This document shows positions 263 to 46,997 of a stretch of DNA of 51,673 nt, in pieces. The DNA is taken from the NCBI GenBank assembly GCA_016931775.1, contig JAFGEC010000232.1:1-51673 (forward strand). Direction: 5' to 3'. The notes under the pieces were generated by a model. It was not told the origin of the DNA and searched no databases. It saw only the letters and a program-made list of their open reading frames with translations. Every line of letters begins with the position of its first letter. Within the stretch, counting starts at the first letter, position 1. Source of the DNA: Candidatus Zhuqueibacterota bacterium. GTDB lineage: Bacteria > Zhuqueibacterota > Zhuqueibacteria > Residuimicrobiales > JAFGEC01. Made by a program: the position numbers and the translations under genes.

Positions 263-1222
263 ATGCGATTTCTTGTGACGGGTGGAGCAGGTTTTATCGG
301 CTCTCATCTTGTTGAAAAATTAATTTCCACTAACCATGTGGATATTGTCGATAATTTTAATGATTATTATAATCCGGCAATTAAACGGGAGAATATAAAA
401 AAAGTACTTTCAAGTGATCATGTGAAATTATATGAAGGAGATATCCTTGATTATAATTTTTTAGAATCCATATTTAAACAAAATCAATATGACTATATCG
501 TACATCTGGCGGCCAGGGCGGGTGTTCGGCCGTCCATTCAAGAACCTCTGTTGTACGAAAAAGTGAATATTCAGGGAACCATGCATCTGTTGGAGTTGTG
601 TAAACAGTACCATACTGACAAGTTCATTTTTGCTTCTTCTTCTTCCGTTTATGGGGCAAACAAAAAGGTGCCTTTCCACGAAGATGATTCCGTTGATTTT
701 CCTGTTTCACCCTATGCAGCGACGAAAAAAGCCGGAGAACTCGTGTGCTATACCTATCATAAGCTTTACAATATTTCAATTACCTGTTTACGATTTTTTA
801 CTGTTTATGGCCCCAGACAACGTCCGGATATGGCCATTCATAAGTTTACGCGTCTTATATATGAAGATAAATCCGTACCGGTGTTCAGCAATGGCAAAAG
901 CAAAAGAGATTATACATATATTGATGACATCATTCAAGGTATACTGGCTTCCATCGAAAATTGCAATGGATATCACATTTATAATTTAGGAGAGTCAAAG
1001 ACAGTACAGCTGATGTATTTACTGGAGCTATTACAGAAAGGGCTGGGTAAAAAAGCACAACTCGAATTTTTACCGGATCAGCCCGGTGATGTTCCCGTCA
1101 CTTTTGCCGATGTGAGTCGTGCCAAAGCTGAATTAAATTATAATCCGCAAATTGCAATTGAGGAAGGTATAAATTCATTTATAGAATGGTTTTTGGATAA
1201 TAACAACACTGTGAAAAGATGA
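263..1222 (+). CDS. NAD-dependent extended-SDR sugar-nucleotide 4-epimerase (UDP-glucuronate 4-epimerase-like)
   Basis: 319 aa ORF. Rossmann motif GGAGFIGSHL, catalytic YAATK (YxxxK), and an RFFTVYGPRQRPDMA block typical of UDP-GlcA/UDP-sugar 4-epimerases. A purine-rich RBS lies upstream. Confidence 0.85.
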   Translation: MRFLVTGGAGFIGSHLVEKLISTNHVDIVDNFNDYYNPAIKRENIKKVLSSDHVKLYEGDILDYNFLESIFKQNQYDYIVHLAARAGVRPSIQEPLLYEKVNIQGTMHLLELCKQYHTDKFIFASSSSVYGANKKVPFHEDDSVDFPVSPYAATKKAGELVCYTYHKLYNISITCLRFFTVYGPRQRPDMAIHKFTRLIYEDKSVPVFSNGKSKRDYTYIDDIIQGILASIENCNGYHIYNLGESKTVQLMYLLELLQKGLGKKAQLEFLPDQPGDVPVTFADVSRAKAELNYNPQIAIEEGINSFIEWFLDNNNTVKR

Positions 1223-2676
1223 TATCTGAAAAGGAAAGATTTGTCGCAAATATCATGAAAGGCATGGATTTTGTAATCCTGTTGTTGGCTTTTCCTGCAG
1301 CGTATTTCCTTGATGAGTACATACGGCATATTGCCGAACTGAACGTCAAAGCTTATGCCACCGGACCGACGTTCGGAGGTGCCGCGTTTTTTATGTCCAA
1401 TTATTGGCAAATGTTATTTGGATTTCCGATTATTTGGATTGTACTTTTTTCATTGAACGGAATCTACCGTGATTATCGTATTCAACCCTTTAAAAAACAG
1501 GCATGGCTGATGCTTGTGTCGGGCGTGTGGGCAACCATTGCATCCGGCAGCTTTATCTTTTTATTGAAACTGGAAATGGCCAGCCGCTTGTTTTCCATTG
1601 TGTTTGCTTTTACCGCTTATCTGCTTCTATGTGGCGAAAAGTGGGCGGTGCGATATTTTCTCGATCATATGCATTCAAAAGGATATAATCAAGAAAATTT
1701 ATTGATCGTCGGTACCGGAAAAAGAGCCCGGGATTTTATCCATGCATTAAAAAATCATTCCAATTGGGGCTTGAAGATAGTTGGACTTATTGATGACGAA
1801 CATGGTTTGTTCGGTAAAGAGGTTTGCGGATACCGAGTGATCGGGCGTATCCAGGACATTCCGTTTATTATCAATCGTTTGGTTATCGATCGTGTTATTT
1901 TTGTCGTTCCGCGTTTATGGCTGCATCGTATTGAAGAGGCCATTCTCGCTTGTGAGGAGATTGGTGTCTCAACATCCATTTCACTTGATCTGTATAATCT
2001 CCATATCGCCAGAACACGTCAAACCGATTTTAACGGGTTCCCATTGCTTGAATTCGAAACCTTTTCTGCCAAGGAATGGCAGTTATTCATTAAACGCGCT
2101 TTGGATATTCTTGTTTCTCTTTCCGCTTTACTTTTCTTTTCTCCGCTCATGCTGGCTGTTGCAATTTTGATTAAATTGACATCCAACGGGCCGATTTTGT
2201 TCAATCAAACCCGCTGCGGACTCAAGGGCCGTAAATTTACTCTTTTCAAGTTCAGGTCTATGGTGAACGATGCTGAGGACAGGAAAAAGTATTTATTGGA
2301 AAACAATGAGATGGATGGGCCGGTTTTTAAAATAAAGAGAGACCCTCGTATTACGTCAATCGGTTATTTTTTACGCAAGACAAGTATCGATGAATTACCG
2401 CAATTTTTTAATGTATTAAAAGGTGATATGAGTATCGTCGGACCGCGACCGCCTCTGGAGAGTGAAATAGAGTTGTATGAAATTTGGCAACGACGTCGTC
2501 TAAGTTTAAAGCCAGGAATTACATGTATTTGGCAGGTCAGCGGCCGCAACAAACTGAGTTTCGATCAATGGATGAAGATGGACCTGGAATATATCGATAC
2601 ATGGTCTCTCTTTCTTGACTTGAGGATTATGATTAAAACTTTTTTTGTTGTGCTCATTGGATATGGGGCTGAATGA
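1219..2676 (+). CDS. Initiating polyprenyl-phosphate sugar-1-phosphate transferase (large WbaP/EpsB-type PGT)
   Basis: 485 aa. N-terminal TM helices, a central Rossmann-like LLIVGTGKRARD segment, and a C-terminal bacterial sugar transferase domain with KFRSM, DELPQ and GDMSIVGPRPP. ATGA overlap with the upstream stop. Confidence 0.9.
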   Translation: MISEKERFVANIMKGMDFVILLLAFPAAYFLDEYIRHIAELNVKAYATGPTFGGAAFFMSNYWQMLFGFPIIWIVLFSLNGIYRDYRIQPFKKQAWLMLVSGVWATIASGSFIFLLKLEMASRLFSIVFAFTAYLLLCGEKWAVRYFLDHMHSKGYNQENLLIVGTGKRARDFIHALKNHSNWGLKIVGLIDDEHGLFGKEVCGYRVIGRIQDIPFIINRLVIDRVIFVVPRLWLHRIEEAILACEEIGVSTSISLDLYNLHIARTRQTDFNGFPLLEFETFSAKEWQLFIKRALDILVSLSALLFFSPLMLAVAILIKLTSNGPILFNQTRCGLKGRKFTLFKFRSMVNDAEDRKKYLLENNEMDGPVFKIKRDPRITSIGYFLRKTSIDELPQFFNVLKGDMSIVGPRPPLESEIELYEIWQRRRLSLKPGITCIWQVSGRNKLSFDQWMKMDLEYIDTWSLFLDLRIMIKTFFVVLIGYGAE

Positions 2677-2707
2677 TCGTTACGGCTTTTTTTGATTACA
2701 GCATAAT

Positions 2708-3922
2708 ATGGAAAAAAAATTTAAATTAATGACACAGCAAAAAAAACAATTAAATATTTTAATGATCGCTCCCGAACCCTGGTTCCAACCAAGGGGAACC
2801 CCCTTTAGCGTATTACATCGCATCAAAGCGATTACATCATTGGGACATCATGTCGATTTGGTCACCTATCCCATTGGTGAAGACATACCAATGGAAAACC
2901 TGTCGATTCACCGGTCAATTCGGCTTCCTTTCGTAAAGAAAGTAAAAATCGGACCGTCGTTCGTAAAACTCTTGCTGGACATTCCTTTGTTTTTTAGTGC
3001 ATTGAGGTTGATGTCGCGTAATAAATATGATATTTTGCATACGCATGAAGAAGCCAGTTTTTTCGGAACTCTGCTGGCACGAAAATACAATGTATCGCAT
3101 CTTTATGACATGCATTCCTCCTTGCCACAACAGTTACGCAATTTCAAGTATACGAATTCAAAGTTGATTTATAAACTATTTGAAAAATTGGAAAAAGTCA
3201 CCCTTGAAAATGCAAAGGGTATTATAACCATTTGTCCTGAATTATATCATATGGTGAAGGCGGGTTATCCACAAAAAAACAGTATTCTCATAGAAAACGT
3301 TGGCGACAATTCTCTTGTTTTTGGTAAAGAAACCATAGATTTAATTGCAATGCGGGAAAAATATTCCATAGGAGCCGAGAAAATTATTTTATACTCCGGC
3401 ACATTCGAGCCGTATCAGGGATTGGAATTATTGATCGACAGTGCGCAATTTTTATTTCATAACGATGGTCCAAACGCTCAATATGTCATCGTTGGTGGTG
3501 CGGAGCATCAAATTGAAAAATATCGATCACTTGTAAAAAGCAAAGGACTTGATTCACGGTTTGTGTTTACAGGACATGTTCAACCACGTACCATGCCGGC
3601 TTTTATCGAACTTTCTCATGTGTTGGTGTCACCGAGGCTGGGCGGATCAAATTCTCCCCTAAAAATTTATTCTTATTTGCGTTCCGGTAAACCGATTGTG
3701 GCTACACGGCATATAACACACACTCAAATATTGGACGACAATGTTGCCCTTCTTGCAGAGCCGGATCCCAGTGCTTTTGCTAATGCTATTAAAATCGCCC
3801 TTGAAGATTCAAAACGTAAAAATAGTATGGTTCGGGCCGCCCAAAAATTGGCTCGTGAGCGATATAGCTATGAAGATTATATAAAAAAGACAAATTGGAT
3901 TATACAGCAGACATTGAATTAA
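2708..3922 (+). CDS. GT-B fold glycosyltransferase (GT4-like)
   Basis: 404 aa. N-terminal MIAPEPWFQPRGTPFSV-type GT4 start; the C-terminal half has the G-x-FEPYQG and SPRLGGSNSPLKIYSYLRSGKPIVAT pattern (E-x7-E region) of retaining GT4 enzymes. Confidence 0.8.
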   Translation: MEKKFKLMTQQKKQLNILMIAPEPWFQPRGTPFSVLHRIKAITSLGHHVDLVTYPIGEDIPMENLSIHRSIRLPFVKKVKIGPSFVKLLLDIPLFFSALRLMSRNKYDILHTHEEASFFGTLLARKYNVSHLYDMHSSLPQQLRNFKYTNSKLIYKLFEKLEKVTLENAKGIITICPELYHMVKAGYPQKNSILIENVGDNSLVFGKETIDLIAMREKYSIGAEKIILYSGTFEPYQGLELLIDSAQFLFHNDGPNAQYVIVGGAEHQIEKYRSLVKSKGLDSRFVFTGHVQPRTMPAFIELSHVLVSPRLGGSNSPLKIYSYLRSGKPIVATRHITHTQILDDNVALLAEPDPSAFANAIKIALEDSKRKNSMVRAAQKLARERYSYEDYIKKTNWIIQQTLN

Positions 3923-4696
3923 GTGATGGTCAAAGTTAAAGAACAGCATTATAGTTATCAACTATACAAACAAAAGTATTTTGCACAGGAATATGAAAAA
4001 GATCGGTTCGGTAGTCGATTCGGACAGTATTTAAAAACCAAAGAAGGCTTTATATATGCACGAATGGTTCCGGAATATAAAAGGTTAATCGATGTCGGTG
4101 CCGGAACAGGTAAACTCGCAATACTTCTTAAGCAGCCAAACTCATTTGTAGTGGCAACGGATGCTTCATTGGAAATGTTACGCGTTGCTGCGCAGTTGGC
4201 ACAACAGACGGATAAAAAAATCTCATTGGTAGTTTGTGATGCACATCATTTATGTTTTAAAAATAATTCATTTGATGTTGCTGTTTCATCACGTGTACTT
4301 ATGCATTTGGTGAATTGGAGATCAGCGCTGAGTGAATACTGTAGAATAAGTCGGAACAGTATCATATTAGATTTTCCTTATGCTGCCAGTTTTACTTTTT
4401 TTGAACGTGTAATTCGTAAATTTTTACAGTTTTTCAAAACAGCTCAATGCTACAGGGCATTTTGGCTCAAGACTGTGAAAACTGAATACAAAAAATATGG
4501 ATTTAAAGTCGTACAGTCGGAAAAGTTGTATTTTTTACCGATTTTTTTGCATCGATGTATGGGACGGATCAACTTTTCGGAAAAACTGGAAACCTTTTTT
4601 GCCCGAATTGGATTGACAGGAATGTTTGGCAGCCCTGTTATCCTCCGAGTCGATGCGACAGAGGAAGGAACCGAGAGCGATGACGAGAAATTTTAA
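3923..4696 (+). CDS. Class I SAM-dependent methyltransferase
   Basis: 257 aa. SAM-binding motif I LIDVGAGTGKLA followed by the acidic VVATDAS. GTG 3923 or ATG 3926 as start, directly after the upstream TAA. Confidence 0.8.
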   Translation: MMVKVKEQHYSYQLYKQKYFAQEYEKDRFGSRFGQYLKTKEGFIYARMVPEYKRLIDVGAGTGKLAILLKQPNSFVVATDASLEMLRVAAQLAQQTDKKISLVVCDAHHLCFKNNSFDVAVSSRVLMHLVNWRSALSEYCRISRNSIILDFPYAASFTFFERVIRKFLQFFKTAQCYRAFWLKTVKTEYKKYGFKVVQSEKLYFLPIFLHRCMGRINFSEKLETFFARIGLTGMFGSPVILRVDATEEGTESDDEKF

Positions 4697-6335
4697 AAAT
4701 TATTATGATCTCCTGATAATTGGCGGCGGTATATACGGTGCTGCCATCGCCTGGATTGCCGCCTCTCGTGGATTGTCTGTCGCGCTGGTGGAAAAGGGCG
4801 ATTTTGCCGGTGCCACTTCCGGCAACAGTCTCAAAATTATTCATGGCGGCTTGCGTTATCTTCAGCAATTGGATATTAAACGTGTCCGGGAATCGATTGC
4901 CGAAAGGAAAAAATTGCTTCAAATTGCCCCACATTTGATTCACCCGCTTACCTGTCTTATGCCGACAATCGGATTGGGAATGAAAGGGATGCCTATTTTG
5001 AGCCTCGGATTGCTGGTCAATGATATAATTAGTCTAGACCGCAATATCGGCATGGATGCGGAAAAATATCTGCCGCGTGGAAAAGTTATGTCCCGACAAA
5101 AAATGAAGCAAATATTGCCGTTTCTTTCGGACAAGTACACAGGTGCTGCCTTGTGGACGGATGCTCAGGTTTATAACTCAGAACGGCTGGTTCTTGCTTA
5201 TATAAAATCGGCAAAAAATGCCGGCGCTACGGTTTTTAATTACGCCAAGGTCGATTCTTTTTTACGCAACGGCCGGGACGTGATCGGAGCTCAGGTGAAT
5301 GATTTGATCCAGGGTTTGAATCTGCAAGTTCGAGCCAAAATGACGGTAACAGCGACCGGCCCCTGGACAAACTCGGTTCTCGAATTAACAGGAGAGTCTT
5401 TTAAGCCCTTTATTCCTTCAAAAGCAATGAATATATTATTGAGGCGCCGTATATCCCCTGATTACGCTTTTGCCGTATCGAGCGGTGTGGAATTTCGGAA
5501 TGGAAAAAAGAATTGGCGGAAAAAATCCCGACAATTGTTTATCACACCTTGGCGCGATGTAAGTATTGTCGGGACATCACATTTGCCGTATAACGGATCC
5601 ATTGAAAACTTCCGGATAACCATAACAGATATCCAGGATTTTTTGCTTGAACTGAACGAGATCCTGCCCGGTATCAATCTGGATGAATCCGACGTCTCAT
5701 TTTTTCACGGTGGTGTGTTGCCGTTGGCAAAACATCCGGAGCCGGACAAGGATGTTGAGCTTTTAAAACATTATAAAATTATTGATTTTTCAAAAAAAAT
5801 AGGTATCGGTGGATTATCCAGTGTCATCGGGGTAAAATACACGACGGCACGAGATGTGGCCGAAAAAGTTGTCGAATTTGTGATGTCCAAGTTGAATTTT
5901 CAGTCGGCAAATAAAATATTCAAAAATGTGATAGGCGGAGAAATTTTAAATTTCAAGCAATATATGCAAAGTGTTGAATCCGAAAGGCCGGGTAACTTGA
6001 GTGAGGATACCATTCGGCAGCTTGTGCTGAATTATGGAGATGAGTATCGAAAAATTGTTCAACTCGTTGGAAAAAATCCTTTGTTGGCGGAAACCCTGAA
6101 TTCGGCTGTCATTACAGCGCAAATCGTTTTTGCTGTTCGCGAGGAAATGGCTTTCAAGCTATCGGATGTTATTTTACGGCGCACAGAACTGGGTTCAGCG
6201 ATTTGTCCGGAAGATAATATATTACAAAAATGTGCAAAGATCATGGCAAAGGAACTGGGATGGTCTGCCGAACGGACTGAGGCAGAAATTGAAGAAGTAA
6301 AGCAGTTTTATACAGCAGCAGATAAGAGAAATTAA
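4680..6335 (+). CDS. FAD-dependent oxidoreductase of the GlpD/GlpA (glycerol-3-phosphate dehydrogenase-like) family
   Basis: DLLIIGGGIYGAA dinucleotide fold plus SGNSLKIIHGGLRYL, resembling the SSKLIHGGLRYL signature of GlpD. I place the start at ATG 4680 (MTRNFKNYYDLLIIGGG) rather than the track start 4626. It overlaps the methyltransferase stop by 17 nt. Confidence 0.75.
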   Translation: MTRNFKNYYDLLIIGGGIYGAAIAWIAASRGLSVALVEKGDFAGATSGNSLKIIHGGLRYLQQLDIKRVRESIAERKKLLQIAPHLIHPLTCLMPTIGLGMKGMPILSLGLLVNDIISLDRNIGMDAEKYLPRGKVMSRQKMKQILPFLSDKYTGAALWTDAQVYNSERLVLAYIKSAKNAGATVFNYAKVDSFLRNGRDVIGAQVNDLIQGLNLQVRAKMTVTATGPWTNSVLELTGESFKPFIPSKAMNILLRRRISPDYAFAVSSGVEFRNGKKNWRKKSRQLFITPWRDVSIVGTSHLPYNGSIENFRITITDIQDFLLELNEILPGINLDESDVSFFHGGVLPLAKHPEPDKDVELLKHYKIIDFSKKIGIGGLSSVIGVKYTTARDVAEKVVEFVMSKLNFQSANKIFKNVIGGEILNFKQYMQSVESERPGNLSEDTIRQLVLNYGDEYRKIVQLVGKNPLLAETLNSAVITAQIVFAVREEMAFKLSDVILRRTELGSAICPEDNILQKCAKIMAKELGWSAERTEAEIEEVKQFYTAADKRN

Positions 6336-6357
6336 ATCTTGAATTAGGGAGAACATC

Positions 6358-7374
6358 ATGTCAACGAGAGCTCTGGTTACAGGTGCCTCCGGTTTTACCG
6401 GGGGATATATGGTGCAAAATCTTATCGACCATGGCTATAACGTTCGCGTTTTCATTCAATCGACCAGTCCGATCGAAAAGTTAAAACAACAGGGTGTAGA
6501 ATTTGCATTTGGAGACGTTCGCAACCTCGAAGAGGTGGAAAATGCATGCGATGATATTGATGTGATCTATCACATCGCGGCGTTATATCGAACAACCAAT
6601 GTCCCCGATTCAGCCTATTGGGATGTAAATGCACTGGGAACAGAAAACATAATGAAAGCAGCAATTACAAAGGGTGTAAAACGTGTTCTACATTGCAGTA
6701 CCGTCGGCGTACACGGGCACATCGATAATCCACCTGCTACAGAGGAAGCCCCGTTCAATCCGGGGGATGTCTACCAGGAATCCAAGCTGGAAGGTGAAAA
6801 AATTGCGTTACATTATTATAAAACCAAAGGCCTGCCGGTTACGGTCGTACGCCCGTGTGGGATTTATGGACCGGGTGATTTTCGTATGCTCAAGTTTTAT
6901 CGATTAATCCAAAAACGCCGATTTGTTATGTTTGGCGATGGAAACGCCCTTTACCATTTAACCTATGTGACGGATACGGTGGAAGGATTTCGTCTAGCTG
7001 CGGAACATCCTGCTTCCATCGGTCAAGTTTACATCATTGCCGGCGACACCTATTTTACTCTGAACCAGTTTGCAGAAACCGTTTCAAAAGAGCTTTGTGT
7101 TCCTCCGCCACGGTTTCATTTTCCCGTTATGCCAATTTATGTCTTGTCTTATCTTGTAGAAAAATTCTGCGTTGCGCTGAGGACACCTCCACCCATTTTC
7201 CGCCGGCGGGTGGATTTTTTTACAAAATCTCGAGCCTTTGATTGCATCAAAGCAAAAAAAGAGTTACACTATCAACCAAAAGTCGGGATACAGGAAGGAA
7301 TCCGGAAAACAATCGCCTGGTATATTCAAAAAGGTCTGCTTGCGCCGGTAGAAGGATATCAAAAACCAGAATAA
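6358..7374 (+). CDS. NAD(P)-dependent epimerase/dehydratase/reductase (extended SDR)
   Basis: 338 aa. TGASGFTGG Rossmann motif and YQESK catalytic YxxxK. AGGGAG RBS upstream of the ATG. Confidence 0.85.
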   Translation: MSTRALVTGASGFTGGYMVQNLIDHGYNVRVFIQSTSPIEKLKQQGVEFAFGDVRNLEEVENACDDIDVIYHIAALYRTTNVPDSAYWDVNALGTENIMKAAITKGVKRVLHCSTVGVHGHIDNPPATEEAPFNPGDVYQESKLEGEKIALHYYKTKGLPVTVVRPCGIYGPGDFRMLKFYRLIQKRRFVMFGDGNALYHLTYVTDTVEGFRLAAEHPASIGQVYIIAGDTYFTLNQFAETVSKELCVPPPRFHFPVMPIYVLSYLVEKFCVALRTPPPIFRRRVDFFTKSRAFDCIKAKKELHYQPKVGIQEGIRKTIAWYIQKGLLAPVEGYQKPE

Positions 7375-7384
7375 AGGAATAGCC

Positions 7385-8119: not shown

Positions 8120-8138
8120 AATAAACCAAGGAGTAAAT

Positions 8139-9266: not shown

Positions 9267-9286
9267 CCAAACGCGGAGGTCTCTAA

Positions 9287-10321: not shown

Positions 10322-10333
10322 AAGGAGTTAAAA

Positions 10334-12359: not shown

Positions 12360-12479
12360 AAGGAGTATTTTTTGACTGTATTTTGTATAGTTACAAGGTG
12401 GAGCCTAATATCGTCTGCTTTTTCCGGATTGATATGTAAATTTTACTGTTTTTAAGAATTACCTAAATAAATAAAACTG

Positions 12480-12496
12480 TTGGCATAAATATTGCA
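12480..12496 (+). promoter_or_regulatory. Sigma-54 (-24/-12) type promoter
   Basis: TTGGCATAAATATTGCA matches TGGCAC-N5-TTGCW. GG is at 12482-12483 and GC at 12494-12495, the exact 12-nt register. It lies in the 436-nt AT-rich intergenic gap upstream of the small ORF and the secreted protein gene. Confidence 0.6.
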
Positions 12497-12561
12497 AATC
12501 AACAGAGTTGATAAATATATTTTATCACAAAAACGTAAAATTGAAGGGAGGAGAATCAAGT

Positions 12562-36112: not shown

Positions 36113-36235
36113 ATGAAATATCATTTTTTAAATCGGTTTTATAAAAAATACTTTCACGGCATTATTTCTGCAACTGAATATATTAAATATCTTTTGACTC
36201 GAAAATCTGAACTTTTATTTTTGCATCCGCTATGA
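36113..36235 (+). CDS. Candidate 40-aa micro-ORF filling the intergenic gap (hypothetical)
   Basis: ATG 36113 immediately follows TGA 36110-36112. Its TGA stop (36233-36235) overlaps ATG 36232 of the next gene. Product: MKYHFLNRFYKKYFHGIISATEYIKYLLTRKSELLFLHPL. No homology recognised. Confidence 0.2.
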   Translation: MKYHFLNRFYKKYFHGIISATEYIKYLLTRKSELLFLHPL

Positions 36236-37185: not shown

Positions 37186-37191
37186 TTCATC

Positions 37192-40797: not shown

Positions 40798-40837
40798 ACC
40801 GGTTTTCTATAAATCCGTAATAAAACAAAGGTTTCAA

Positions 40838-42073
40838 ATGTCGAATAGTAAAAAAAAGATATGCTATTTTAATCATATGGAAGATCTTTTCGGCAGCTCT
40901 ATCGGTTCGACAATCAAGGCGGTCGAGCTGTTGAAACACCTGGAAAAGCACGATTTTGAGGTTTTTTACTATTGGCGGTTTGGCGGACAGGCATCGAGTC
41001 CTCAACAGCAACGAGGATGGCGAAAAGCCCTCAAACACCCGTTGCTGCGTCGTCTTTTTTTTACTCCCAAGTATATGTTACTCAACTTGAAGGAAATGGT
41101 TGCAGAGTACCGATTTATCCGTCGATACCAGCCGGATTTGCTGATTCTGCGCCTCGATTTGTACCGTTTTTCCGTGGTTCTGCTTGCGAAGCTCTTGGGT
41201 ATTCCGCTTGTTTTGGAAGCGGACAGTGCAATGTCTTATGAATGGCTTACTTTTAATAATAAAGACCGCAATATATGGCCGCAATGGCTTTATTTTTTTG
41301 AAAAGTTTTGTTTGAAAAATGCTCGAGCGGTTTTTGCGCAATCTCTGGAAACCCGGCAGTATCTCTCAAAGACTCACGGTTTTCACACCGATGATATAAT
41401 GGTTATAACCAATGGAGCACGGATTTTGCCCAATGAACCGTCCCAAAATTCACGAAAACGGAAGGAACTGGGTATCCCGGAGAACGGACTGGTATGCGGT
41501 TTCCTCGGATCATTGCATTTTTGGCATGGCACGGATTTATTGTATCAACTCATGGACCGGCTTTTAAGAAAAAATCATCGAGTCTGGTTTTTAATTGTGG
41601 GAACCGGCGGCCCCTATGCTGAACAATTCAAACAACACTGTGCGCAAAGTGAATGGTATAACCGTGTGGTATTTGCCGGTTATGTTGAGCATGGTCGGGC
41701 GTATGAATATATCAATCTTTTTGATATCGCTTTGGCGCCATATTCCTCTCAAGGATTGTTTTATTATTCGCCGGTAAAAATATTTGAATATATGGCGCAG
41801 GGGAAACCCGTCATTACGACACGAGTGGGACAAATAGCGCGTCTCGTGCAGCCGGGTGAAAATGGTGTTTTTTTCGATCCGGAAAAACCGGAGGATCTTT
41901 TTGAAAAGACATCGAGTCTTGTAAACAATTCAAAATTGAGGGTGCATGTTGGCCGGAACGCTCGAAATACGATTTTGGAAAACCATACATGGGATCACAA
42001 GGCGGCGCAGCTGGCACAGCTATGTAATAAAGTGATAAAACGCTCTTACATATCCAATGACTCTATTCGATAA
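40838..42073 (+). CDS. GT-B fold glycosyltransferase (GT4-like)
   Basis: 411 aa. The C-terminal SPVKIFEYMAQGKPVITTRVGQIARLV region is typical of GT4. Confidence 0.8.
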   Translation: MSNSKKKICYFNHMEDLFGSSIGSTIKAVELLKHLEKHDFEVFYYWRFGGQASSPQQQRGWRKALKHPLLRRLFFTPKYMLLNLKEMVAEYRFIRRYQPDLLILRLDLYRFSVVLLAKLLGIPLVLEADSAMSYEWLTFNNKDRNIWPQWLYFFEKFCLKNARAVFAQSLETRQYLSKTHGFHTDDIMVITNGARILPNEPSQNSRKRKELGIPENGLVCGFLGSLHFWHGTDLLYQLMDRLLRKNHRVWFLIVGTGGPYAEQFKQHCAQSEWYNRVVFAGYVEHGRAYEYINLFDIALAPYSSQGLFYYSPVKIFEYMAQGKPVITTRVGQIARLVQPGENGVFFDPEKPEDLFEKTSSLVNNSKLRVHVGRNARNTILENHTWDHKAAQLAQLCNKVIKRSYISNDSIR

Positions 42074-42122
42074 TTCGTCAAATTTTTAGTACGCTTTAAG
42101 TGCTTTGTGGTATGTTAATTTC

Positions 42123-42803
42123 TTAAACGAGTTTGTCGGATTTTTCTCCAAACAAAATATTCGAAATGCCGAATAGCGGGATTGTATAGGGCAGCTTTTT
42201 GAGTAGTTTAAATAAAAGGATCGGCGTACGGTTCGGAGTAAACCAGCCTCCGGTTTTAATCATATAATTTTGAATTTCTGCTTTTTCAACCAGCGATCGT
42301 ATGTATCGCGGTGTAAAGCGAAAAGTACCGCGTTCCGCTGGAGTGAGAAGTGCAAAAATTATTTGGGCGGGATTCCATACATTGGGTTCAAAAATTAAAA
42401 TATACCGCCGGCTCACCCTTGTCATTTCACGGACGACGTCGAGGGGTTTTGCGATATGATGCAGTAATTCCCAGCATGTGACCATATCAAATTTTTTGTC
42501 TTGGAAAGGTAGTTTGTATGCATCCGCTAGACATACCCTGTCTTTGGAAGGATTTTTATGAAGCATGGATATGGAAATATCACAACCGAACATGCCTTTC
42601 GTGATATCCTTCATAAACCACATACCGAAACCGTCACCGCATCCTACCTCAAGTATGGAATTGACCGGGTTTTGCAGTAAACCGCTGATAAAATCCATTC
42701 GCTGATTGGAAAAACCCTGTACCACCGGGTGGTGAACTGTTCGCAGATTGGTCGTTACATCCCAAAATTTTTTCTGTTTCGTATCAAAATCAGACATAAT
42801 CAA
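42123..42803 (-). CDS. Class I SAM-dependent methyltransferase (only minus-strand gene in the right-hand 30 kb)
   Basis: 226 aa. ILEVGCGDGFG motif I and FDMVTCWELLHHI motif. Confidence 0.8.
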   Translation of the reverse strand: MIMSDFDTKQKKFWDVTTNLRTVHHPVVQGFSNQRMDFISGLLQNPVNSILEVGCGDGFGMWFMKDITKGMFGCDISISMLHKNPSKDRVCLADAYKLPFQDKKFDMVTCWELLHHIAKPLDVVREMTRVSRRYILIFEPNVWNPAQIIFALLTPAERGTFRFTPRYIRSLVEKAEIQNYMIKTGGWFTPNRTPILLFKLLKKLPYTIPLFGISNILFGEKSDKLV

Positions 42804-42884
42804 AACTGTTGTATTTTAGTTGTAAAATGTTATATTTTATCCGCTAAATGCAATATTTGGTGTATTTTAAATTAATAATTTATT

Positions 42885-44468
42885 ATGAATAAAACCAGTC
42901 GTTTTATGAAAATATTGAAAATTGTCTCAATAGCATTGTTTGTCGTTCTTGTCGTATTTTTGCAATTTTACGGCATAAATTCCCTTGTTTTAAACAGCGA
43001 TGAGTTACATCCTGCACGGACACTTGTCAGCGACGATTGGAGTCTGGTTGATTATCCCTGGCCGGAAGAAGCAACACGAGAGTTTTTTAACGACTGGCCC
43101 ATCCAATTTCCGCCGCTTTTCGGCCTGGCTGTTCGTCTTGCTGTTGTTTTATTCGGGAGCAACCATTTTGCCTTGCGGTTTTTTCCCGCTTTTTTTGCAG
43201 TCCTTGCAGTGGGAGCATCTTTCCTTCTGTACAGGTTATTCGTTTCAACGCCGTGGGCTTTCACCGGTGCTGTTATAATGGGCGTTATGTCTGACAAACT
43301 CATGTGGTATGCCAAGTGCTTGAAACATTATACGGCCGATGTGCTTTTTACCGTTCTGCTTTTATATTTTGGCAAGATGGCACTGGATCGTAATCGGATT
43401 TTATACTGGATACTATTTTCGGTTACCGCATCCGTTGCGATATGGGTGGCATTCGGATCCGTATTTGTGGCCGGTGCTGTGTTTGTGGCCGTTTTTTATA
43501 AATGGATTGTCCTGGATCACCAATCTGGTGGTTGGAAAAAAATAATTAGCGGCGGCCTGCTGTTTGCATGTTCTCTTGCCGCTCTTTATTTCATTAATAT
43601 CTCTAAAGCGGTTTCCAACCCGGTGTTTTTGCAGGCTTGGGATCTGCAAACTTTTGTGGGGAGCCGGGCGTCCGATTTTGGCTATCTGTTACGATTTTTC
43701 CTTCACAAGGGTTATCACATTTTACTTCTTCCATACTATTTTTTTGAAGATAATTATGCGTTTGCTGTTCCGGCGAATCTATGTATCATTATTTATTTTG
43801 TATATGCAGTAAAAAAGCGCCAATGGACGAATCTGAAGTTGTTTCTTTTGCCTCTGGTGTTCGTATTGTTATTATCCACAATGGGGAAGTATCCGTTTTC
43901 TGCAGGACGGTTGTCTCTGTTTTTGCTGCCGATTTGGATTCTTTTGATACTTTTAGGATTACGGCAGGTTTTTCGTTATTTATACCGGCGGAATAAATAC
44001 TTACTCTATGCTGTTACTTCAATTTGCGTCGCTTTGTCATTGTTTCTGGTGTATACAAATGTTGTCAAAGTTTCACATCAAAAATATGCAGGTGGGCGTC
44101 GGGTGGATCAAATGATTTTTGCCTTGAAAGAAAACGCCCGCGATCAGGATACCGTTTTTTTACACTGGGGAGCCATTCTGCCGTTTTATTTTTACTATAC
44201 GGATCATAAACCCGGCTACCAAAAACAGTATCCTGTTGACCATTTGGGCACAATAAACGTGATTTACGGTGAGGAACATACCCTGTTTCCGCAAAATGAG
44301 GAAGCCCAGTTCGAGCGGGTAGTGAATGTGCCCGGACGGCTTTGGATTGTTTTCGGCCATTTATGGCCCTCTGATGATATGAAAAAATTAGTTGATATGC
44401 TGGATAACCGCAGAGTGAGGCTGCAAAAATTCGAATTTAAAGGATGTGTACTCTTTCTTTACGATTAA
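42885..44468 (+). CDS. GT-C fold glycosyltransferase-like membrane protein (ArnT/PMT_2-like)
   Basis: 527 aa, ~10 TM helices plus a soluble C-terminal domain. The first-loop motif LNSDELHPARTL follows TM1. Confidence 0.65.
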   Translation: MNKTSRFMKILKIVSIALFVVLVVFLQFYGINSLVLNSDELHPARTLVSDDWSLVDYPWPEEATREFFNDWPIQFPPLFGLAVRLAVVLFGSNHFALRFFPAFFAVLAVGASFLLYRLFVSTPWAFTGAVIMGVMSDKLMWYAKCLKHYTADVLFTVLLLYFGKMALDRNRILYWILFSVTASVAIWVAFGSVFVAGAVFVAVFYKWIVLDHQSGGWKKIISGGLLFACSLAALYFINISKAVSNPVFLQAWDLQTFVGSRASDFGYLLRFFLHKGYHILLLPYYFFEDNYAFAVPANLCIIIYFVYAVKKRQWTNLKLFLLPLVFVLLLSTMGKYPFSAGRLSLFLLPIWILLILLGLRQVFRYLYRRNKYLLYAVTSICVALSLFLVYTNVVKVSHQKYAGGRRVDQMIFALKENARDQDTVFLHWGAILPFYFYYTDHKPGYQKQYPVDHLGTINVIYGEEHTLFPQNEEAQFERVVNVPGRLWIVFGHLWPSDDMKKLVDMLDNRRVRLQKFEFKGCVLFLYD

Positions 44469-44514
44469 TTGTAAACTGACCGGCTCCTCAATGATGTAGA
44501 AAAATAAATATTTT

Positions 44515-45675
44515 ATGAAGTCGAAACGAAAAATAAACGTCATGCAACTGATCGAAGGTTTCGGATTGGGTGGCGCTGAAAAAAAAGTGTGTGAATTGAT
44601 CGCACGCATGGATCCCGATCGGTTCAATACCGTGGTCTGTTCATTCGGGATCTGTGAGGAAATCCGTGATTTTTTTACCGATTTGAATGTCAAGGTATAC
44701 ACATTACCAAGATATCAACAATTCGATATCTCGCTCATTTGGCGACTGCGCCAGGTCATCCGGCGTGAAAAAATCGATATCATCATGTCGACGTTGTTTC
44801 ATGCGGATTTTTGGGGCGCTCTGGTTGGTAAATGGGCAGGTGCAAAAGCGGTTTTTTCCTGGGAAACCATTTCATCACCTGAATGGCTGATTCCGAGGCG
44901 TTTATATCCATATCGCCTGGTCATCCGGCTTGCCGACAAGGTGATTTCCGTTTCCCATGCGACGGCACACTGGCTGGAGGAAAAACGCGGTGTGCCCCGA
45001 AGCCGGATTGAGGTCATTCCGTACGGGGTAGATTTGTGCACTTATAAAAACGGCGATGAACCACAATTGCGTAATGAAATCGGCTTACGCAAGGAAAATA
45101 TCGTTATAGGAATGGTTGGCCGGTTGGTTCTTCAAAAAGGGCATATGTACCTTATCGAGGCAGCCGAATCTGTTGTGAAGGAATTCCCGCAGGTAAGGTT
45201 CGTTCTGGTGGGTGACGGCCCGTTGCGAAACGAAATCGAAAATCGTGTCATGGAAAAAGGCCTGCAAGACTATTTCCTGTTGTTGGGAATCCGGCATGAC
45301 GTACCTCAACTCTTACGCGAGTTTGATATTTTTTGTTTGCCCTCTCTGTTTGAGGGATTGCCCAATGTCATTTTAGAGGCCATGGCTTCGGGTTTGCCGG
45401 TGGTCGCAACCCATGTGGACGGCACCAAAGAAGCGGTTGTTCCCAAGGAAACCGGTTTGTTGATTCCACCCAAAAATCCATCCGAACTCGTACGCGCGCT
45501 TAAAATTCTGCTTTCCGACCCGCAAAAAGCCGCTGCTATGGGCAGGGCCGGCCGGAAACGGGTTGAAAAGTACTTTTCGCTGGAAGGACAAGTGAAAAGT
45601 TTTGAGAAATTGTATGAAACGTATACCTTTCGGGAAAAAACGCTTTCAACAGATGACGGTTTGAACTGGCCCTGA
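44515..45675 (+). CDS. GT-B fold glycosyltransferase (GT4-like)
   Basis: 386 aa. N-terminal LIEGFGLGGAEK and C-terminal LPSLFEGLPNVILEAMASGLPVVATHVDGTKE (E-x7-E). Confidence 0.85.
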   Translation: MKSKRKINVMQLIEGFGLGGAEKKVCELIARMDPDRFNTVVCSFGICEEIRDFFTDLNVKVYTLPRYQQFDISLIWRLRQVIRREKIDIIMSTLFHADFWGALVGKWAGAKAVFSWETISSPEWLIPRRLYPYRLVIRLADKVISVSHATAHWLEEKRGVPRSRIEVIPYGVDLCTYKNGDEPQLRNEIGLRKENIVIGMVGRLVLQKGHMYLIEAAESVVKEFPQVRFVLVGDGPLRNEIENRVMEKGLQDYFLLLGIRHDVPQLLREFDIFCLPSLFEGLPNVILEAMASGLPVVATHVDGTKEAVVPKETGLLIPPKNPSELVRALKILLSDPQKAAAMGRAGRKRVEKYFSLEGQVKSFEKLYETYTFREKTLSTDDGLNWP

Positions 45676-45755
45676 AGCAGTAGAAGATTTCCTGCTTTCA
45701 CCACATCACAAAAAATTTAATCTGGCTGCGATTGTTATAGTTCCGGAAATATCCA

Positions 45756-46997
45756 ATGAAAATTCTCAGTGTTCACAAGTTTCATTACATAGAAGGCGGC
45801 GCGGAAAGATATGTTTTCAATCTTTCCGATGTTCTGGAAAAGCGGAAACATACCGTCATTCCGTTTTCCATGCGGCATCCCAAAAACGTACCCTCTCCCT
45901 ACGACGATTTTTTTTCCCCATATTTTAATCCGGAGCAGTTTAAAAGTACGAAAAACCCGATGCGAATTGCTCAAAACGCCATTCGCGTCATCTATAATCG
46001 CGAGGCACAGAAAAAGCTGGCATCACTCATTGAAAAAACCAAACCCGAAATAGCCCATGTTCACAGCATCTATCACCATTTGTCGCCCGCGGTGCTCAAG
46101 ACGTTGAAGGATCACCATTTGCCGGTTTTACAAACACTGCACGACTTTAAACTTCTTTGTCCGAATATCGTGTTTTTAGACGGCAAGAACAAGGTCTGTA
46201 CTCTGTGCAGTAGAGGCAACAACTGGCATGCCATGTGGAAAAAATGTTTCCGCAATTCATTGCCGGGCAGTTTTTTGGTCTCACTCGAGGCGACTGTTCA
46301 TAAATATCTGCGCAGTTATAAAAAATATATCGATGTGTTTCATGTACCCAGCCGGTTTTTGGGCAGCCGGATTATACAAAACGGATACTCTCATCGGCCG
46401 GTAGAAGTGTTGCCTTATACACTCAATGTGAACAATTATTTGCCGAACTATAATCCTGATAACTATTTTGTCTTCGTCGGACGCCTGTCCGTGGAAAAAG
46501 GCGTGCTGTTTTTGCTGGATGCCATTAAAAAGATAAAATCGATTCAATTGAAAATTATCGGTACGGGACCGTTGGAACAACAGATGAAAGAACGTATTAG
46601 CCGCGAACAGTTGACTCATGTAAAAATGGTAGGGTATCAATCGGGAGAGGCATTAAAAAAACTGGTGTCGGGGGCGCTTTTTACCACGGCGCCGTCTCTG
46701 TGCCACGATAACTCACCGTTGTCCATCTATGAATCGTTTTCTCTGGGAAATGCCGTCCTGGGTTCGCGGATGGGAGGTATTCCTGAACTCATCGAGCCTG
46801 GTGTAGATGGATTGGTCTTTGAGCCGGATAATACGGATGATTTTGCCGACAAGGTCGAACAGCTGGTCTCAAACAGGGATAAGACCGTTCAAATGGGCAA
46901 AAACGGCCGCCGAAAAGCGGAAAAACTGTACGCGCCGGATGTTCATTATGAACGGATTATGGAAATGTACCGGAAAACCTGTAAACTGGCGGGATAA
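45756..46997 (+). CDS. GT-B fold glycosyltransferase (GT4-like)
   Basis: 413 aa. N-terminal KILSVHKFHYIEGGAERY and C-terminal SPLSIYESFSLGNAVLGSRMGGIPELI. Confidence 0.85.
   Translation: MKILSVHKFHYIEGGAERYVFNLSDVLEKRKHTVIPFSMRHPKNVPSPYDDFFSPYFNPEQFKSTKNPMRIAQNAIRVIYNREAQKKLASLIEKTKPEIAHVHSIYHHLSPAVLKTLKDHHLPVLQTLHDFKLLCPNIVFLDGKNKVCTLCSRGNNWHAMWKKCFRNSLPGSFLVSLEATVHKYLRSYKKYIDVFHVPSRFLGSRIIQNGYSHRPVEVLPYTLNVNNYLPNYNPDNYFVFVGRLSVEKGVLFLLDAIKKIKSIQLKIIGTGPLEQQMKERISREQLTHVKMVGYQSGEALKKLVSGALFTTAPSLCHDNSPLSIYESFSLGNAVLGSRMGGIPELIEPGVDGLVFEPDNTDDFADKVEQLVSNRDKTVQMGKNGRRKAEKLYAPDVHYERIMEMYRKTCKLAG

Follow-up and report, generated by a model that had tools for sequence, protein, structure and literature searches.

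We analysed a stretch of 51,673 nucleotides (contig JAFGEC010000232.1, assembly GCA_016931775.1; "the window" is this stretch at its full length) from a member of Candidatus Zhuqueibacterota, the phylum of the Fibrobacterota-Chlorobiota-Bacteroidota (FCB) group also known as candidate division KSB1. Positions 1..46997 hold a run of nearly all plus-strand, co-directional genes, separated by short gaps or with overlapping frames, that would build and export a glycan. Pfam scans of all open reading frames (ORFs) of at least 150 aa in the window found in this run one initiating polyprenyl-phosphate hexose-1-phosphate transferase (PGT), nine glycosyltransferases (GTs) of family GT4 (GT-B fold), six of family GT2 and four of the GT-C fold, together with two Wzx, one Wzy_C and two UPF0104 proteins. 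This is exactly the tally that the original prediction had drawn from the letters alone. With a little more belief than doubt, we take the product to be a phylum-conserved surface polysaccharide of the Wzx/Wzy type, exported by Wza and Wzc and decorated in the periplasm by four lipid-sugar/GT-C branches. The core of the original prediction, a Wzx/Wzy-type locus with several polyprenyl-phosphate-sugar synthase/GT-C branches, stands after profile-HMM annotation, structure prediction and a neighbourhood search. Three outcomes had been named as telling against it: membrane proteins that are not GT-C enzymes, GT2s that are processive synthases or ordinary repeat-unit glycosyltransferases, and a common, known type of cluster. 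None was found in full.

The four large membrane proteins on which the periplasmic branches depend are the following:
25058..26908, plus strand: GTC_1, GT-C glycosyltransferase with about 12 transmembrane (TM) helices and the loop-1 motif NPDEGAHL (PMT_2, 52 bits against a cut-off of 26)
30610..32250, plus strand: GTC_2, GT-C glycosyltransferase with the loop-1 motif HPDExK (PMT and PMT_2 in Pfam; AlphaFold 2 model)
32247..33989, plus strand: GTC_3, GT-C glycosyltransferase with the loop-1 motif DTxxYD (PMT_2, 39 bits against a cut-off of 26)
42885..44468, plus strand: GTC_4, GT-C glycosyltransferase with the loop-1 motif SDELHPAR (PMT_2, 25.3 bits against a gathering cut-off of 26.1)

In all four a soluble tail comes after 9-12 predicted TM helices, and each has an acidic motif, invariant or at least 90% conserved in its orthologues, directly after TM1, which is where such a motif is the hallmark of GT-C catalysis. 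The NPDEGAHL motif of GTC_1 is at least 90% conserved in 32 orthologues, D37 and E38 of GTC_2 are invariant, DTxxYD of GTC_3 is conserved in 17 orthologues, and the D and E of the GTC_4 motif are invariant. A PMT/PMT_2 membrane domain and a loop-1 Asp-Glu motif, features of the GT39/PMT type, were found. GTC_2 and GTC_4 were modelled from orthologue alignments (AlphaFold), and GTC_1 and GTC_3 are assigned from PMT_2 and the motif. The GTC_2 model has a mean predicted confidence (pLDDT) of 90.3, and the top 44 matches in a Foldseek search of the PDB are all GT-C proteins (STT3, ALG12, ALG9, AglB, ArnT, PglB, PMTs, AftA and Emb). The GTC_4 model (pLDDT 90.5) matches ArnT best (E 2.8e-7, TM-scores 0.59/0.57), followed by STT3, AglB, PglB, ALG12 and ALG9. 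GTC_4 has 28 full-length orthologues at 37-70% identity plus one weak match at 24%; the named ones are all from KSB1, and several carry the NCBI name 'glycosyltransferase family 39'. Sequence searches of the four GT-Cs and of the Wzy_C protein against the PDB gave nothing significant. The claim that the four proteins are GT-C enzymes was therefore borne out by the PMT_2 matches, the conserved loop-1 motifs and two models with the GT-C fold whose PDB matches are all GT-C proteins, and the profile-HMM annotation and structure prediction proposed as checks agree. In pairwise BLAST comparisons the four gave E-values of 0.003 or worse, indicating that they are not recent duplicates of one another. 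GTC_2 and GTC_3 are neighbours with overlapping frames.

The donors for these enzymes would come from GT2 synthases. The six GT2 genes (starts at 17975, 18936, 19926, 22054, 29524 and 33990) and a small partner gene are:
17975..18934, plus strand: GT2_1, ArnC/GtrB-type polyprenyl-phosphate-sugar synthase by its PDB matches, DxD intact, two C-terminal TM helices predicted
18936..19925, plus strand: GT2_2, ArnC-like paralogue with T-x-R in place of DxD (NCBIfam ArnC-like, 9.7e-41)
19926..20909, plus strand: GT2_3, synthase of the DPMS/AglJ/GtrB type, two TM helices (alignments with DPMS, ArnC and GtrB; NCBIfam AglJ end to end)
22054..22956, plus strand: GT2_4, generic GT-A glycosyltransferase with a hydrophobic C-terminus (PDB; NCBIfam MftF/EpsD)
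29524..30255, plus strand: GT2_5, soluble PpgS/GacI/WpsA-type polyprenyl-phosphate-sugar synthase of 243 aa, no TM helices (NCBIfam PpgS 9e-28, also ArnC and DPhHxTase)
30252..30623, plus strand: DUF2304 small membrane protein of the GacJ/WpsB/Rv3632 type, 123 aa (Pfam 6.5e-13, scoring 49 bits where the cut-off is 25.5; gene call in locus L001)
33990..34934, plus strand: GT2_6, synthase of the AglJ/PpgS type, two TM helices (NCBIfam AglJ over its full length 5e-19, PpgS 2e-16)

Two C-terminal hydrophobic helices are predicted in all of these GT2s except GT2_5. Residues 18-309 of GT2_1, TM helices included, align with the solved ArnC (1.6e-43) and GtrB (2e-30) and also with DPMS, and its motif MDGDLQNDP is kept as DxDLQNDP in all orthologues. 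At the same place GT2_2 reads FTVRVNINP, and TxR replaces DxD in 25 of 25 orthologues (loci L043-L068, as we number the loci of relatives), which suggests either a pseudo-enzyme or a metal-independent variant. GT2_2 always lies directly after the canonical GT2_1, so that a hetero-oligomer of the two is an obvious possibility; GtrB and ArnC are tetramers. For GT2_5 the best NCBIfam match is PpgS, followed by ArnC and the haloarchaeal dolichyl-phosphate-hexose synthase. The DUF2304 gene lies between GT2_5 and GTC_2, and its reading frame overlaps those of both; GacI/GacJ, WpsA/WpsB and PpgS/Rv3632 are arranged in this way. A small membrane protein of this kind activates a TM-less synthase that makes HexNAc-phosphate-polyprenol, and the GacI/GacJ and WpsA/WpsB arrangement makes GlcNAc-phosphate-undecaprenol (10.1101/180810; PMC10821137). 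We count GT2_5 as a probable synthase in spite of its missing TM helices because such a partner directly follows it. GT2_6 keeps the D and Q of the DxDxQ motif. GT2_4 was rejected as a Dpm1/GtrB-like synthase. Its catalytic domain resembles chondroitin and heparosan synthases (best PDB matches chondroitin synthase, 5tze, named 'Glycosyl transferase', and heparosan synthase), DPMS follows at only 1.6e-5, and the protein is probably a repeat-unit glycosyltransferase.

Judged by sequence and architecture, GT2_1, GT2_3, GT2_5 and GT2_6 are either membrane-anchored or paired with a DUF2304 protein, as expected of such synthases. The original prediction had counted five Dpm1/GtrB/ArnC-type GT2s. Five do resemble synthases, with a different membership, GT2_4 dropping out and GT2_5 coming in through its DUF2304 partner, a gene that the prediction had overlooked. 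Since GT2_2 has no DxD in any of the 25 orthologues, the number of canonical units comes down to four, and four predicted synthase units would thus face four GT-Cs. Adjacency suggests that GT2_5/DUF2304 pairs with GTC_2 and GT2_6 with GTC_3.

The GT2_3 family reaches well beyond KSB1. A genome scan gave 315 matches, the best 80 of which, at 52-73% identity, spread across many bacterial phyla, among them Nitrospirota, Clostridia, Gammaproteobacteria and Acidobacteriota. Outside KSB1 the homologue is often followed by a membrane protein of about 320 aa, a methyltransferase and a polytopic membrane protein of about 755 aa (L064-L122). The two membrane proteins have no Pfam match, and their likeness to the UPF0104 and GT-C proteins of the window, assessed with hmmsearch and hhalign, was not significant. 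The arrangement may be an undescribed three-component module.

The genes that would start, flip, polymerise and export the glycan, with three others on which the argument below draws, are:
1..237, plus strand: C-terminal 78 aa of a Wzc-type tyrosine kinase (BY-kinase, PCP-2a), translated up to its tyrosine cluster ...YYSYYHY*
1219..2676, plus strand: initiating PGT, large, WcaJ/EpsZ type (Bac_transf 1.4e-69, CoA_binding_3)
11280..12359, plus strand: UPF0104/LPG_synthase_TM flippase-like membrane protein #1 (Pfam 9e-38; TIGR00374 87.5 bits against a cut-off of 43.2)
22895..24271, plus strand: GT4_4 (Pfam), whose YdjC neighbour is kept in relatives
24237..25055, plus strand: YdjC-family carbohydrate deacetylase (Pfam 8e-41; ChbG/HpnK-like below cut-off)
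26921..28402, plus strand: Wzx1, MOP-family flippase (Polysacc_synt_3 2.6e-81; PRK10459 289 bits against a cut-off of 273)
28399..29502, plus strand: GT4_5, DUF1972 GT4, Cps2T/WchF-like below cut-off (Pfam, NCBIfam), about 70% identical across KSB1
36232..37185, plus strand: UPF0104 flippase-like membrane protein #2 (Pfam, NCBIfam)
37192..38565, plus strand: Wzy_C-domain protein (Pfam 4.9e-18; no sequence relative in the PDB)
38562..40028, plus strand: Wzx2, MOP-family flippase (Pfam, NCBIfam)

The PGT scores 423 bits against TIGR03025 (EPS_sugtrans, cut-off 296) and is 66-79% identical across KSB1. The BY-kinase that had been placed at the left edge is indeed there: the 78 aa encoded by 1..237 are 51-75% identical to the C-termini of full Wzc genes that stand upstream of the epimerase and PGT genes in KSB1 relatives. 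In one of these (L146) a Poly_export (Wza) gene is followed by a full Wzc of 772 aa (Wzz, GNVR and P-loop domains) and then by the epimerase. Of the parts of a Wzx/Wzy pathway with its outer-membrane exporter and co-polymerase, the PGT and the MOP-type Wzx are therefore seen in the window itself, Wzc as its last 78 aa, and Wza and complete Wzc in L146. The Wzy_C protein is likely, from its domain, to be the polymerase. We found no GtrA-like ORF in the window, and for this reason one of the two Wzx and the UPF0104 proteins are proposed as candidate lipid-sugar flippases; either class could stand in for GtrA. Wzx-type flippases have been proposed for undecaprenyl-phosphate-linked donors in the cases of GacK, WpsG and a Citrobacter MATE protein (PMC8035078; PMC10821137; PMC11127046). 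For the UPF0104 proteins of GpgSDF and HexSDF a lipid-flippase role is predicted (PMC12713373; PMC10128005), and several phyla have UPF0104 proteins fused to GT domains (10.1101/2022.03.11.483950).

Genome collections were scanned three times, for loci around GTC_2, GT2_3 and the PGT, and each locus retrieved was annotated with the window proteins. GTC_2 alone found no relatives as a genome-scan query; the alignment of its homologues did. Almost all homologues of GTC_2 and GTC_4 belong to metagenome-assembled genomes (MAGs) of 'candidate division KSB1'. Gene order is conserved in 39 GTC_2-centred loci, in the KSB1 loci centred on GT2_3 and in about 40 PGT-centred KSB1 loci. In the window the left block runs Wzc C-terminus, epimerase of the short-chain dehydrogenase/reductase (SDR) type, PGT, GT4_1, methyltransferase, GlpD-like FAD oxidoreductase, SDR, WcaF-like acetyltransferase, GT4_2, GFO-type dehydrogenase, third SDR and UPF0104 #1. 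The right block runs YdjM, GT2_1, GT2_2, GT2_3, GT4_3, GT2_4, GT4_4, YdjC, GTC_1, Wzx1, GT4_5, GT2_5, DUF2304, GTC_2, GTC_3, GT2_6, GT4_6, UPF0104 #2, Wzy_C, Wzx2, methyltransferase, GT4_7, minus-strand methyltransferase, GTC_4, GT4_8 and GT4_9. With MT for methyltransferase and DAO for the oxidoreductase, the consensus across KSB1 is (Wza)-Wzc-epimerase-PGT-GT4_1-(MT)-DAO-SDR-acetyltransferase-(GT4_2-GFO-SDR-UPF0104) on the left, YdjM-GT2_1-GT2_2-GT2_3-(variable GTs)-GT4_4-YdjC-(GT2-epimerase)-GTC_1-Wzx1-GT4_5-(GT2_5-DUF2304)-GTC_2-(GTC_3)-(GT2_6...) in the middle and, after that, Wzy-Wzx2-MT-GT4_7-GTC_4-GT4-GT4-giant protein. Dozens of KSB1 species genomes share this order with protein identities of 33-78%; the GT-Cs are at about 33-50%, GT2_1 and GT2_2 at 54-70%, and the PGT, GT4_5 and GT2_3 at 65-79%. 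The PGT and GTC_2 are separated by 28-36 kb, on the same strand, in six genomes, among them the 6.5-Mb chromosome OY843751.1 and a 3.6-Mb contig; the distance here is 29.4 kb. In some genomes the left-block genes for DAO, SDR, UPF0104 and acetyltransferase directly abut the GT2 trio.

The neighbourhood search that had been called for thus finds the same co-occurrence in dozens of KSB1 genomes. The word fusion, by which the locus had first been described, is not borne out; from Wza/Wzc to the giant protein the arrangement is one syntenic unit in many KSB1 genomes. In two GT-C contexts inspected outside KSB1, which are two cases and not a census, there were 0-1 GT-Cs per locus, one of the two being a Wzx/Wzy locus with a single GT-C. 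As far as we found, the KSB1 organisms that carry the locus are known only as metagenome assemblies, and the window too is metagenomic (Logan SRR13394437). Many MAGs with the KSB1-type locus are labelled 'uncultured Cytophagia', 'Calditrichota' or, in one case, 'Actinomycetota'; the labels of these bins are probably wrong or the result of a loose classification.

In the mechanism that we favour, two lipid-carrier tracks would run side by side. For the first, taken from family membership, the WcaJ/EpsZ-type PGT would start a repeat unit on undecaprenyl diphosphate, which the cytoplasmic GT4s and GT2_4 would complete together with the methyl- and acetyltransferases, sugar dehydrogenases and epimerases; a Wzx would flip the unit, the Wzy_C protein would polymerise it, and Wzc and Wza would export the polymer. 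For the second, the architecture is seen in the genes and the chemistry is proposed. Four Dpm1/GtrB/ArnC-type units, namely GT2_1 (with the DxD-less GT2_2), GT2_3, GT2_5 with its DUF2304 activator, and GT2_6, would load sugars onto polyprenyl monophosphate at the cytoplasmic face, and YdjC may N-deacetylate one of the intermediates. The second Wzx, the two UPF0104 proteins, or both would flip the lipid-sugars, and the four mutually unrelated GT-Cs would transfer the sugars in the periplasm to the growing or finished glycan. Substrates, the direction of flipping, the pairing of flippases with lipids and of synthases with GT-Cs, and the acceptor are inferred in this model.

Several points weigh against the decorated polysaccharide. 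Activity, sugars, acceptor and synthase/GT-C pairing are not readable from sequence, and none of the GT2s reaches the equivalog cut-off of NCBIfam, whose cut-offs we used for family membership. The Wzy_C family also holds WaaL ligases and PglL O-oligosaccharyltransferases. There is no GtrA flippase in the window, and the role of UPF0104 is no more than a prediction (PMC12713373; 10.1101/2022.03.11.483950). At least two genomes do not have the locus on a single contig: CAXXFV has its PGT and its GTC_2 on different large contigs, and in JAKQNR GTC_2 lies apart from the rest. A conserved giant protein at the 3' end suggests a connection with a protein. Finally, nine GT4s and two Wzx to a single PGT would suit a second oligosaccharide chain initiated by a GT2.

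Such a second chain, built as in the polysaccharide pellicle (PSP) of Lactococcus, is the most credible alternative, although we regard it as unlikely. One or more of the GT2 synthases, especially GT2_5 with DUF2304, would prime a second oligosaccharide on polyprenyl monophosphate, GT4s such as GT4_5 would extend it, Wzx1 would flip it, and the GT-Cs would polymerise it, graft it en bloc onto the PGT-initiated polymer, or both. This would account for the surplus of GT4s and Wzx proteins, and the string Wzx1-GT4_5-GT2_5-DUF2304-GTC_2-GTC_3, in which the two GT-Cs adjoin and overlap, mirrors WpsA/WpsB, the cytoplasmic GTs, WpsG and WpsH/WpsJ (PMC10821137). However, several syntenic KSB1 loci keep Wzx1, GT4_5 and GTC_2 without GT2_5 and DUF2304. 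GT4_5, moreover, is Cps2T/WchF-like; enzymes of that type act on a diphosphate-linked primer, a preference that fits the equally conserved PGT. Sequence cannot separate GT-Cs that transfer oligosaccharides from those that transfer monosaccharides.

The giant protein raises the question of a protein acceptor:
47370..51673, plus strand: giant secreted protein with fn3, Big_1 and MG domains, N-terminal 1434 aa, running off the window (translation, Pfam)

The frame from 47370, at least 1434 aa long, contains TTPEGGVTPPPSG. In look-ups centred on GTC_4 orthologues, four out of five relatives have its orthologue as the next gene behind the last GT4 (L202 14495-, L204 14244-, L206 17327-, L207 14338-); these proteins are about 2600-2750 aa long, colinear, and 79%, 44%, 44% and 35% identical to it. 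The giant protein thus belongs to the locus as its conserved last gene, and this adjacency argues for some functional link. The orthologues carry fn3, Big_1 and MG domains, FlgD_ig in four of four and a weak Por_Secre_tail of the type IX secretion system (T9SS) type in two of four, which suggests, from domains, that the protein may be T9SS cargo. Long minus-strand ORFs within 47370-51673, such as 47691-48452 (-), were set aside as antisense artefacts inside the giant gene. The G+C content is 0.51 across 48-50 kb and about 0.41 in the remaining window.

Protein glycosylation, in which the GT-Cs (PMT/Pgf/PgtC2-like) or a PglL-type Wzy_C would modify surface proteins, with the giant protein as the prime substrate or as a glycan-anchored partner, is decidedly unlikely in our judgement. 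Besides the position, conservation and C-terminal domains of the giant protein, it is favoured by PgfS, the second-best NCBIfam match of both GT2_1 and GT2_2, by the GT2 and epimerase genes beside GTC_1 in some KSB1 loci, as in the cluster pgfS-pgfM1-pgfE-pgfM2, which itself adjoins the adhesins that are its substrates (PMC11092751), and by a phylum-wide conservation that suits a general glycosylation system better than a variable capsule. The upstream Wza and Wzc genes speak instead for export of a free polymer, the Por_Secre_tail matches are weak, and adjacency alone is no proof of a substrate. The original prediction had leaned on Ser/Thr/Pro-rich linkers in the giant protein as a case for its being the acceptor. 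A composition scan did not support that case, finding no S/T-rich tracts, at most 11 to 12 S, T or P in any 20 residues, and just one such linker, a sequence unlike that of a mucin-type substrate; nor is the Bacteroidota O-glycosylation sequon D[ST][AILVMT] enriched in the protein (z <=2).

A bolder scheme, to which we give little credence, joins several of these elements: one flipped lipid-linked glycan would be extended in the periplasm by four GT-Cs, each with its own synthase as in the luminal ALG steps, and the finished glycan would sit on, or anchor, the T9SS-type protein of about 2700 aa, with the UPF0104 proteins as flippases and the DxD-less GT2 as an obligate partner of its ArnC-like neighbour.

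Very improbable, in our view, is that some of the genes serve to make a free amino-glycolipid and not a donor, with a GT, YdjC as the deacetylase and UPF0104 acting on a membrane lipid as a synthase-deacetylase-flippase (SDF) unit. Such triads exist, as GpgSDF, which makes GlcN-phosphatidylglycerol, and HexSDF show (PMC12713373; PMC10128005), and the hopanoid enzymes HpnI/K/L are a further known example. YdjC always has GT4_4 as its neighbour, there are two UPF0104 genes, and the best or second-best NCBIfam matches of the SDR, YdjC, UPF0104 and radical SAM proteins are HpnA, HpnK, HpnL and HpnJ. All the Hpn-type scores, however, are far below cut-off, and Hpn membership was rejected (HpnA 169 against 368, HpnJ 153 against 578, HpnK 78 against 233, HpnL 49 against 196 bits). 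The matches, which fall on five genes (6358-7374, 11280-12359, 15741-17213(-), 24237-25055 and 36232-37185), appear to reflect a resemblance in domain set to a pathway of lipid-GlcNAc formation, deacetylation and flipping, and not orthology. Neither UPF0104 gene lies beside YdjC, the radical SAM gene is not kept in relatives, the annotation of GpgD is COG3233 and that of HexD polysaccharide deacetylase, the word YdjC occurring in neither paper, and a glycolipid would explain only a small part of the locus. That several independent glycan loci merely lie side by side, as the minus-strand insert at 14812-17213 between left and right blocks and the split loci of CAXXFV and JAKQNR might hint, is hardly credible given the recurrence of this order and spacing in six genomes whose proteins are 33-78% identical, the left-block genes that abut the GT2 trio elsewhere, and a division of labour in which the sole Wzx and Wzy genes are in the right block and the sole PGT, Wzc and Wza in the left.

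For the periplasmically decorated polysaccharide, described systems offer counterparts module by module. One of the closest is GacI/GacJ/GacK/GacL of Streptococcus pyogenes, which adds the GlcNAc side chain of the group A carbohydrate with the same string of soluble GT2, DUF2304, flippase of the Wzx type and GT-C (10.1101/180810; PMC8035078); the corresponding set here, Wzx1, GT4_5, GT2_5, DUF2304 and GTC_2, is contiguous. Gac differs in having a polyrhamnose backbone on GlcNAc-diphosphate-undecaprenol, an ABC transporter and a Gram-positive host, whereas the locus described here combines a PGT/Wzx/Wzy/Wza-Wzc pathway with three further GT-Cs in an FCB-group bacterium. Pfam found no ABC transporter and no dTDP-rhamnose genes in the window. 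Region 2 of the Streptococcus mutans SCC locus (SccN/SccM and SccP/SccQ) likewise has more than one GT-A/GT-C pair in a polysaccharide locus, each with its own undecaprenyl-phosphate-sugar anomer and its own acceptor position (PMC11754754); there, however, the pairs are two, both for glucose, on an ABC-transporter polymer, and no flippases were identified. The Lactococcus cwps/PSP system shares with our locus a GT2 plus small membrane protein that primes on undecaprenyl phosphate, cytoplasmic GTs, Wzx and GT-Cs, and the genome has three further GT-A/GT-C pairs, CsdAB, CsdCD and CsdEF (PMC10821137; PMC8035078). The Csd pairs, in contrast, are scattered outside the cluster and share one GtrA, and there is no PGT/Wza/Wzc track.

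Mycobacterial GT-Cs (Emb, Aft) are clustered, numerous and devoted to one glycan; mostly they share a decaprenyl-phosphate-arabinose donor from a non-GT2 route, and the backbone is not Wzy-dependent. A trio with a GT2 synthase is PpgS/Rv3632/Rv3779, of which Rv3779 is the GT-C. PpgS has a co-transcribed DUF2304 partner that stimulates synthesis, as GT2_5 may have here (10.1101/180810). From the Arn (ArnC/ArnD/ArnE-F/ArnT) and Gtr systems, ArnC and GtrB are what GT2_1 resembles most over its full length, and ArnT is the best structural match of GTC_4; the YdjC deacetylase-type step would parallel ArnD. Neither ArnA, ArnB, ArnD nor ArnE/F was found among the Pfam matches, which include no formyltransferase or aminotransferase domains. 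Membership in Arn was rejected, as NCBIfam ArnC gave 175 and 140 bits against a cut-off of 529, and lipid A is not indicated as the acceptor. With group 1 capsule and colanic acid loci our locus has in common a WcaJ-type PGT, a WzxC-like Wzx (Wzx1), Wzy_C, a WcaF-like acetyltransferase and a BY-kinase, with Wza in relatives. Those loci, however, have about 4-8 cytoplasmic GTs and no GT-C, UPF0104 or lipid-monophosphate synthases, and they vary between strains, whereas the present one is conserved across a phylum. As a working analogy, in the luminal half of the eukaryotic and archaeal lipid-linked oligosaccharide pathway (DPM1/ALG5 with ALG3/9/12/6/8/10) several GT2 dolichyl-phosphate-sugar synthases feed distinct GT-Cs, by which one lipid-linked glycan is lengthened once it has been flipped. 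The structural matches of GTC_2 and of GTC_4 include ALG12 and ALG9, the likeness to ALG being limited to the fold, and no STT3-type domain architecture was identified in the locus. Eukaryotic PMTs carry MIR domains, none of which was found among the Pfam matches of right-block proteins.

The statement in the original prediction that known systems carry one such branch is outdated. In addition to the two pairs of S. mutans SCC (PMC11754754), the Pgf cluster has two GT-Cs (PMC11092751), and Lactococcus lactis and Bacillus subtilis have three pairs each, counted per genome and scattered (PMC8035078). Wzx/Wzy polymers with a GT-C branch have also been described, for example that of Bacillus anthracis GtsABC (PMC8035078). 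The companion claim, that no described locus holds four or more pairs, is consistent with the literature that we searched, in which we found none and in which single loci have one GT-A/GT-C pair or two; a search for glycans of KSB1/Zhuqueibacterota found nothing relevant. Every module therefore has a described counterpart, and what is unusual is the number of branches in one locus and their conservation across a phylum. What appears new is a Wzx/Wzy/Wza-Wzc locus with four integral, phylum-conserved GT-C branches, their synthases and two classes of candidate flippases. Extracytoplasmic glycosylation from polyprenyl-phosphate-sugars is known mainly as a single add-on branch, and the locus suggests that periplasmic GT-C chemistry may be a major part of glycan building and not just a final decoration. 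It offers a test case for the rules of synthase/GT-C pairing and the conserved DxD-less GT2, for the flippase role of UPF0104, still unproven in GpgSDF and HexSDF, and for the connection that may exist between glycan loci and giant surface proteins of the T9SS type, as well as a genomic marker for the KSB1 cell envelope, on which we found nothing published.

The remaining features, among them the other seven of nine GT4 genes (starts of all nine: 2708, 8139, 20910, 22895, 28399, 34931, 40838, 44515 and 45756, from Pfam), are:
263..1222, plus strand: NAD-dependent sugar epimerase/dehydratase, GalE/RmlB-like (Pfam Epimerase/GDP_Man_Dehyd; NCBIfam GalE and RmlB below cut-off)
2708..3922, plus strand: GT4_1, cytoplasmic GT-B glycosyltransferase (Pfam), neighbour of the PGT in relatives at 50-60% identity
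3923..4696, plus strand: SAM methyltransferase MT1 (Pfam)
4626..6335, plus strand: FAD oxidoreductase of the GlpD/GlpO type, DAO and DAO_C (Pfam, NCBIfam), 41-54% identical in KSB1 loci
6358..7374, plus strand: SDR epimerase/reductase, best NCBIfam match HpnA below cut-off, 56-63% identical in most KSB1 loci and about 32% in three
7385..8119, plus strand: hexapeptide O-acetyltransferase, WcaF/WbbJ-like (Pfam, NCBIfam)
8139..9266, plus strand: GT4_2 (Pfam)
9287..10321, plus strand: GFO/IDH/MocA sugar dehydrogenase (Pfam, NCBIfam)
10334..11326, plus strand: SDR epimerase/reductase (Pfam, NCBIfam)
12796..17213, mixed strands: insert with a 625-aa secreted Ig-like protein (plus), a membrane metallophosphoesterase and a B12-binding radical SAM enzyme (Pfam, NCBIfam)
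14812-15639, minus strand: the membrane metallophosphoesterase, which resembles YaeI/LpxG (Pfam, NCBIfam)
15741-17213, minus strand: the B12-binding radical SAM enzyme (Pfam, NCBIfam)
17457..18005, plus strand: YdjM-family inner-membrane protein (Pfam), always preceding the GT2 trio in relatives
20910..22061, plus strand: GT4_3 (Pfam)
34931..36112, plus strand: GT4_6 (Pfam; start from the gene call in L001)
39979..40797, plus strand: SAM methyltransferase MT2 (Pfam), kept after Wzx2 in relatives
40838..42073, plus strand: GT4_7 (Pfam)
42123..42803, minus strand: SAM methyltransferase MT3 (Pfam)
44515-45675, plus strand: GT4_8 (Pfam)
45756-46997, plus strand: GT4_9 (Pfam)

The epimerase at 263..1222 is 61-76% identical in all KSB1 PGT loci. 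The GlpD/GlpO-like oxidoreductase adjoins an SDR in every KSB1 copy of the locus; that the two might oxidise and then reduce a lipid-linked sugar, in a two-step epimerisation like that of DprE1/DprE2, is pure speculation. Scans for sigma-70 promoters and intrinsic terminators at the strand switches and the 3' end gave counts at or below shuffle expectation, which is uninformative for an FCB-group organism.

Relatives also vary in what they add to the locus. In WJMF01000099.1 a fifth PMT_2 GT-C (L206 14346-15821), an amine-oxidase-like gene and an extra GT4 precede the giant protein. Between GT4_6 and UPF0104 the closest relative carries a gene for a pyruvyl transferase (L002 15522-16592). In three of L003, L204, L206 and L207 a Golvesin_C protein of about 690 aa, with GHL15 in one, follows the methyltransferase, and the DUF2304 gene is relocated beside Wzy. 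A distant relative (L205 7050-14322) has a compact module that stands by itself, of GT-C, GT2, DUF2304, a GTC_4-like protein and two GT4s, with trigger factor, ClpP and ClpX coming next; neither the giant protein nor the remainder of the locus is present there.

The insert at 12796..17213 as a whole looks lineage-specific. Neither its metallophosphoesterase nor its radical SAM gene was found upstream of YdjM in any KSB1 relative inspected. The metallophosphoesterase was considered as an UpsH-like recycler of undecaprenyl phosphate (PMC11898649) and rejected, because the gene is not kept in relatives and the protein resembles YaeI/LpxG. Homologues of the 625-aa protein, larger and 29-35% identical, lie upstream of the GT2 trio in three relatives (L043, L045 and L051); the protein is a partial match to relatives of about 1230 aa with Big_5, DUF5060 and Apiosidase-like domains (L043).

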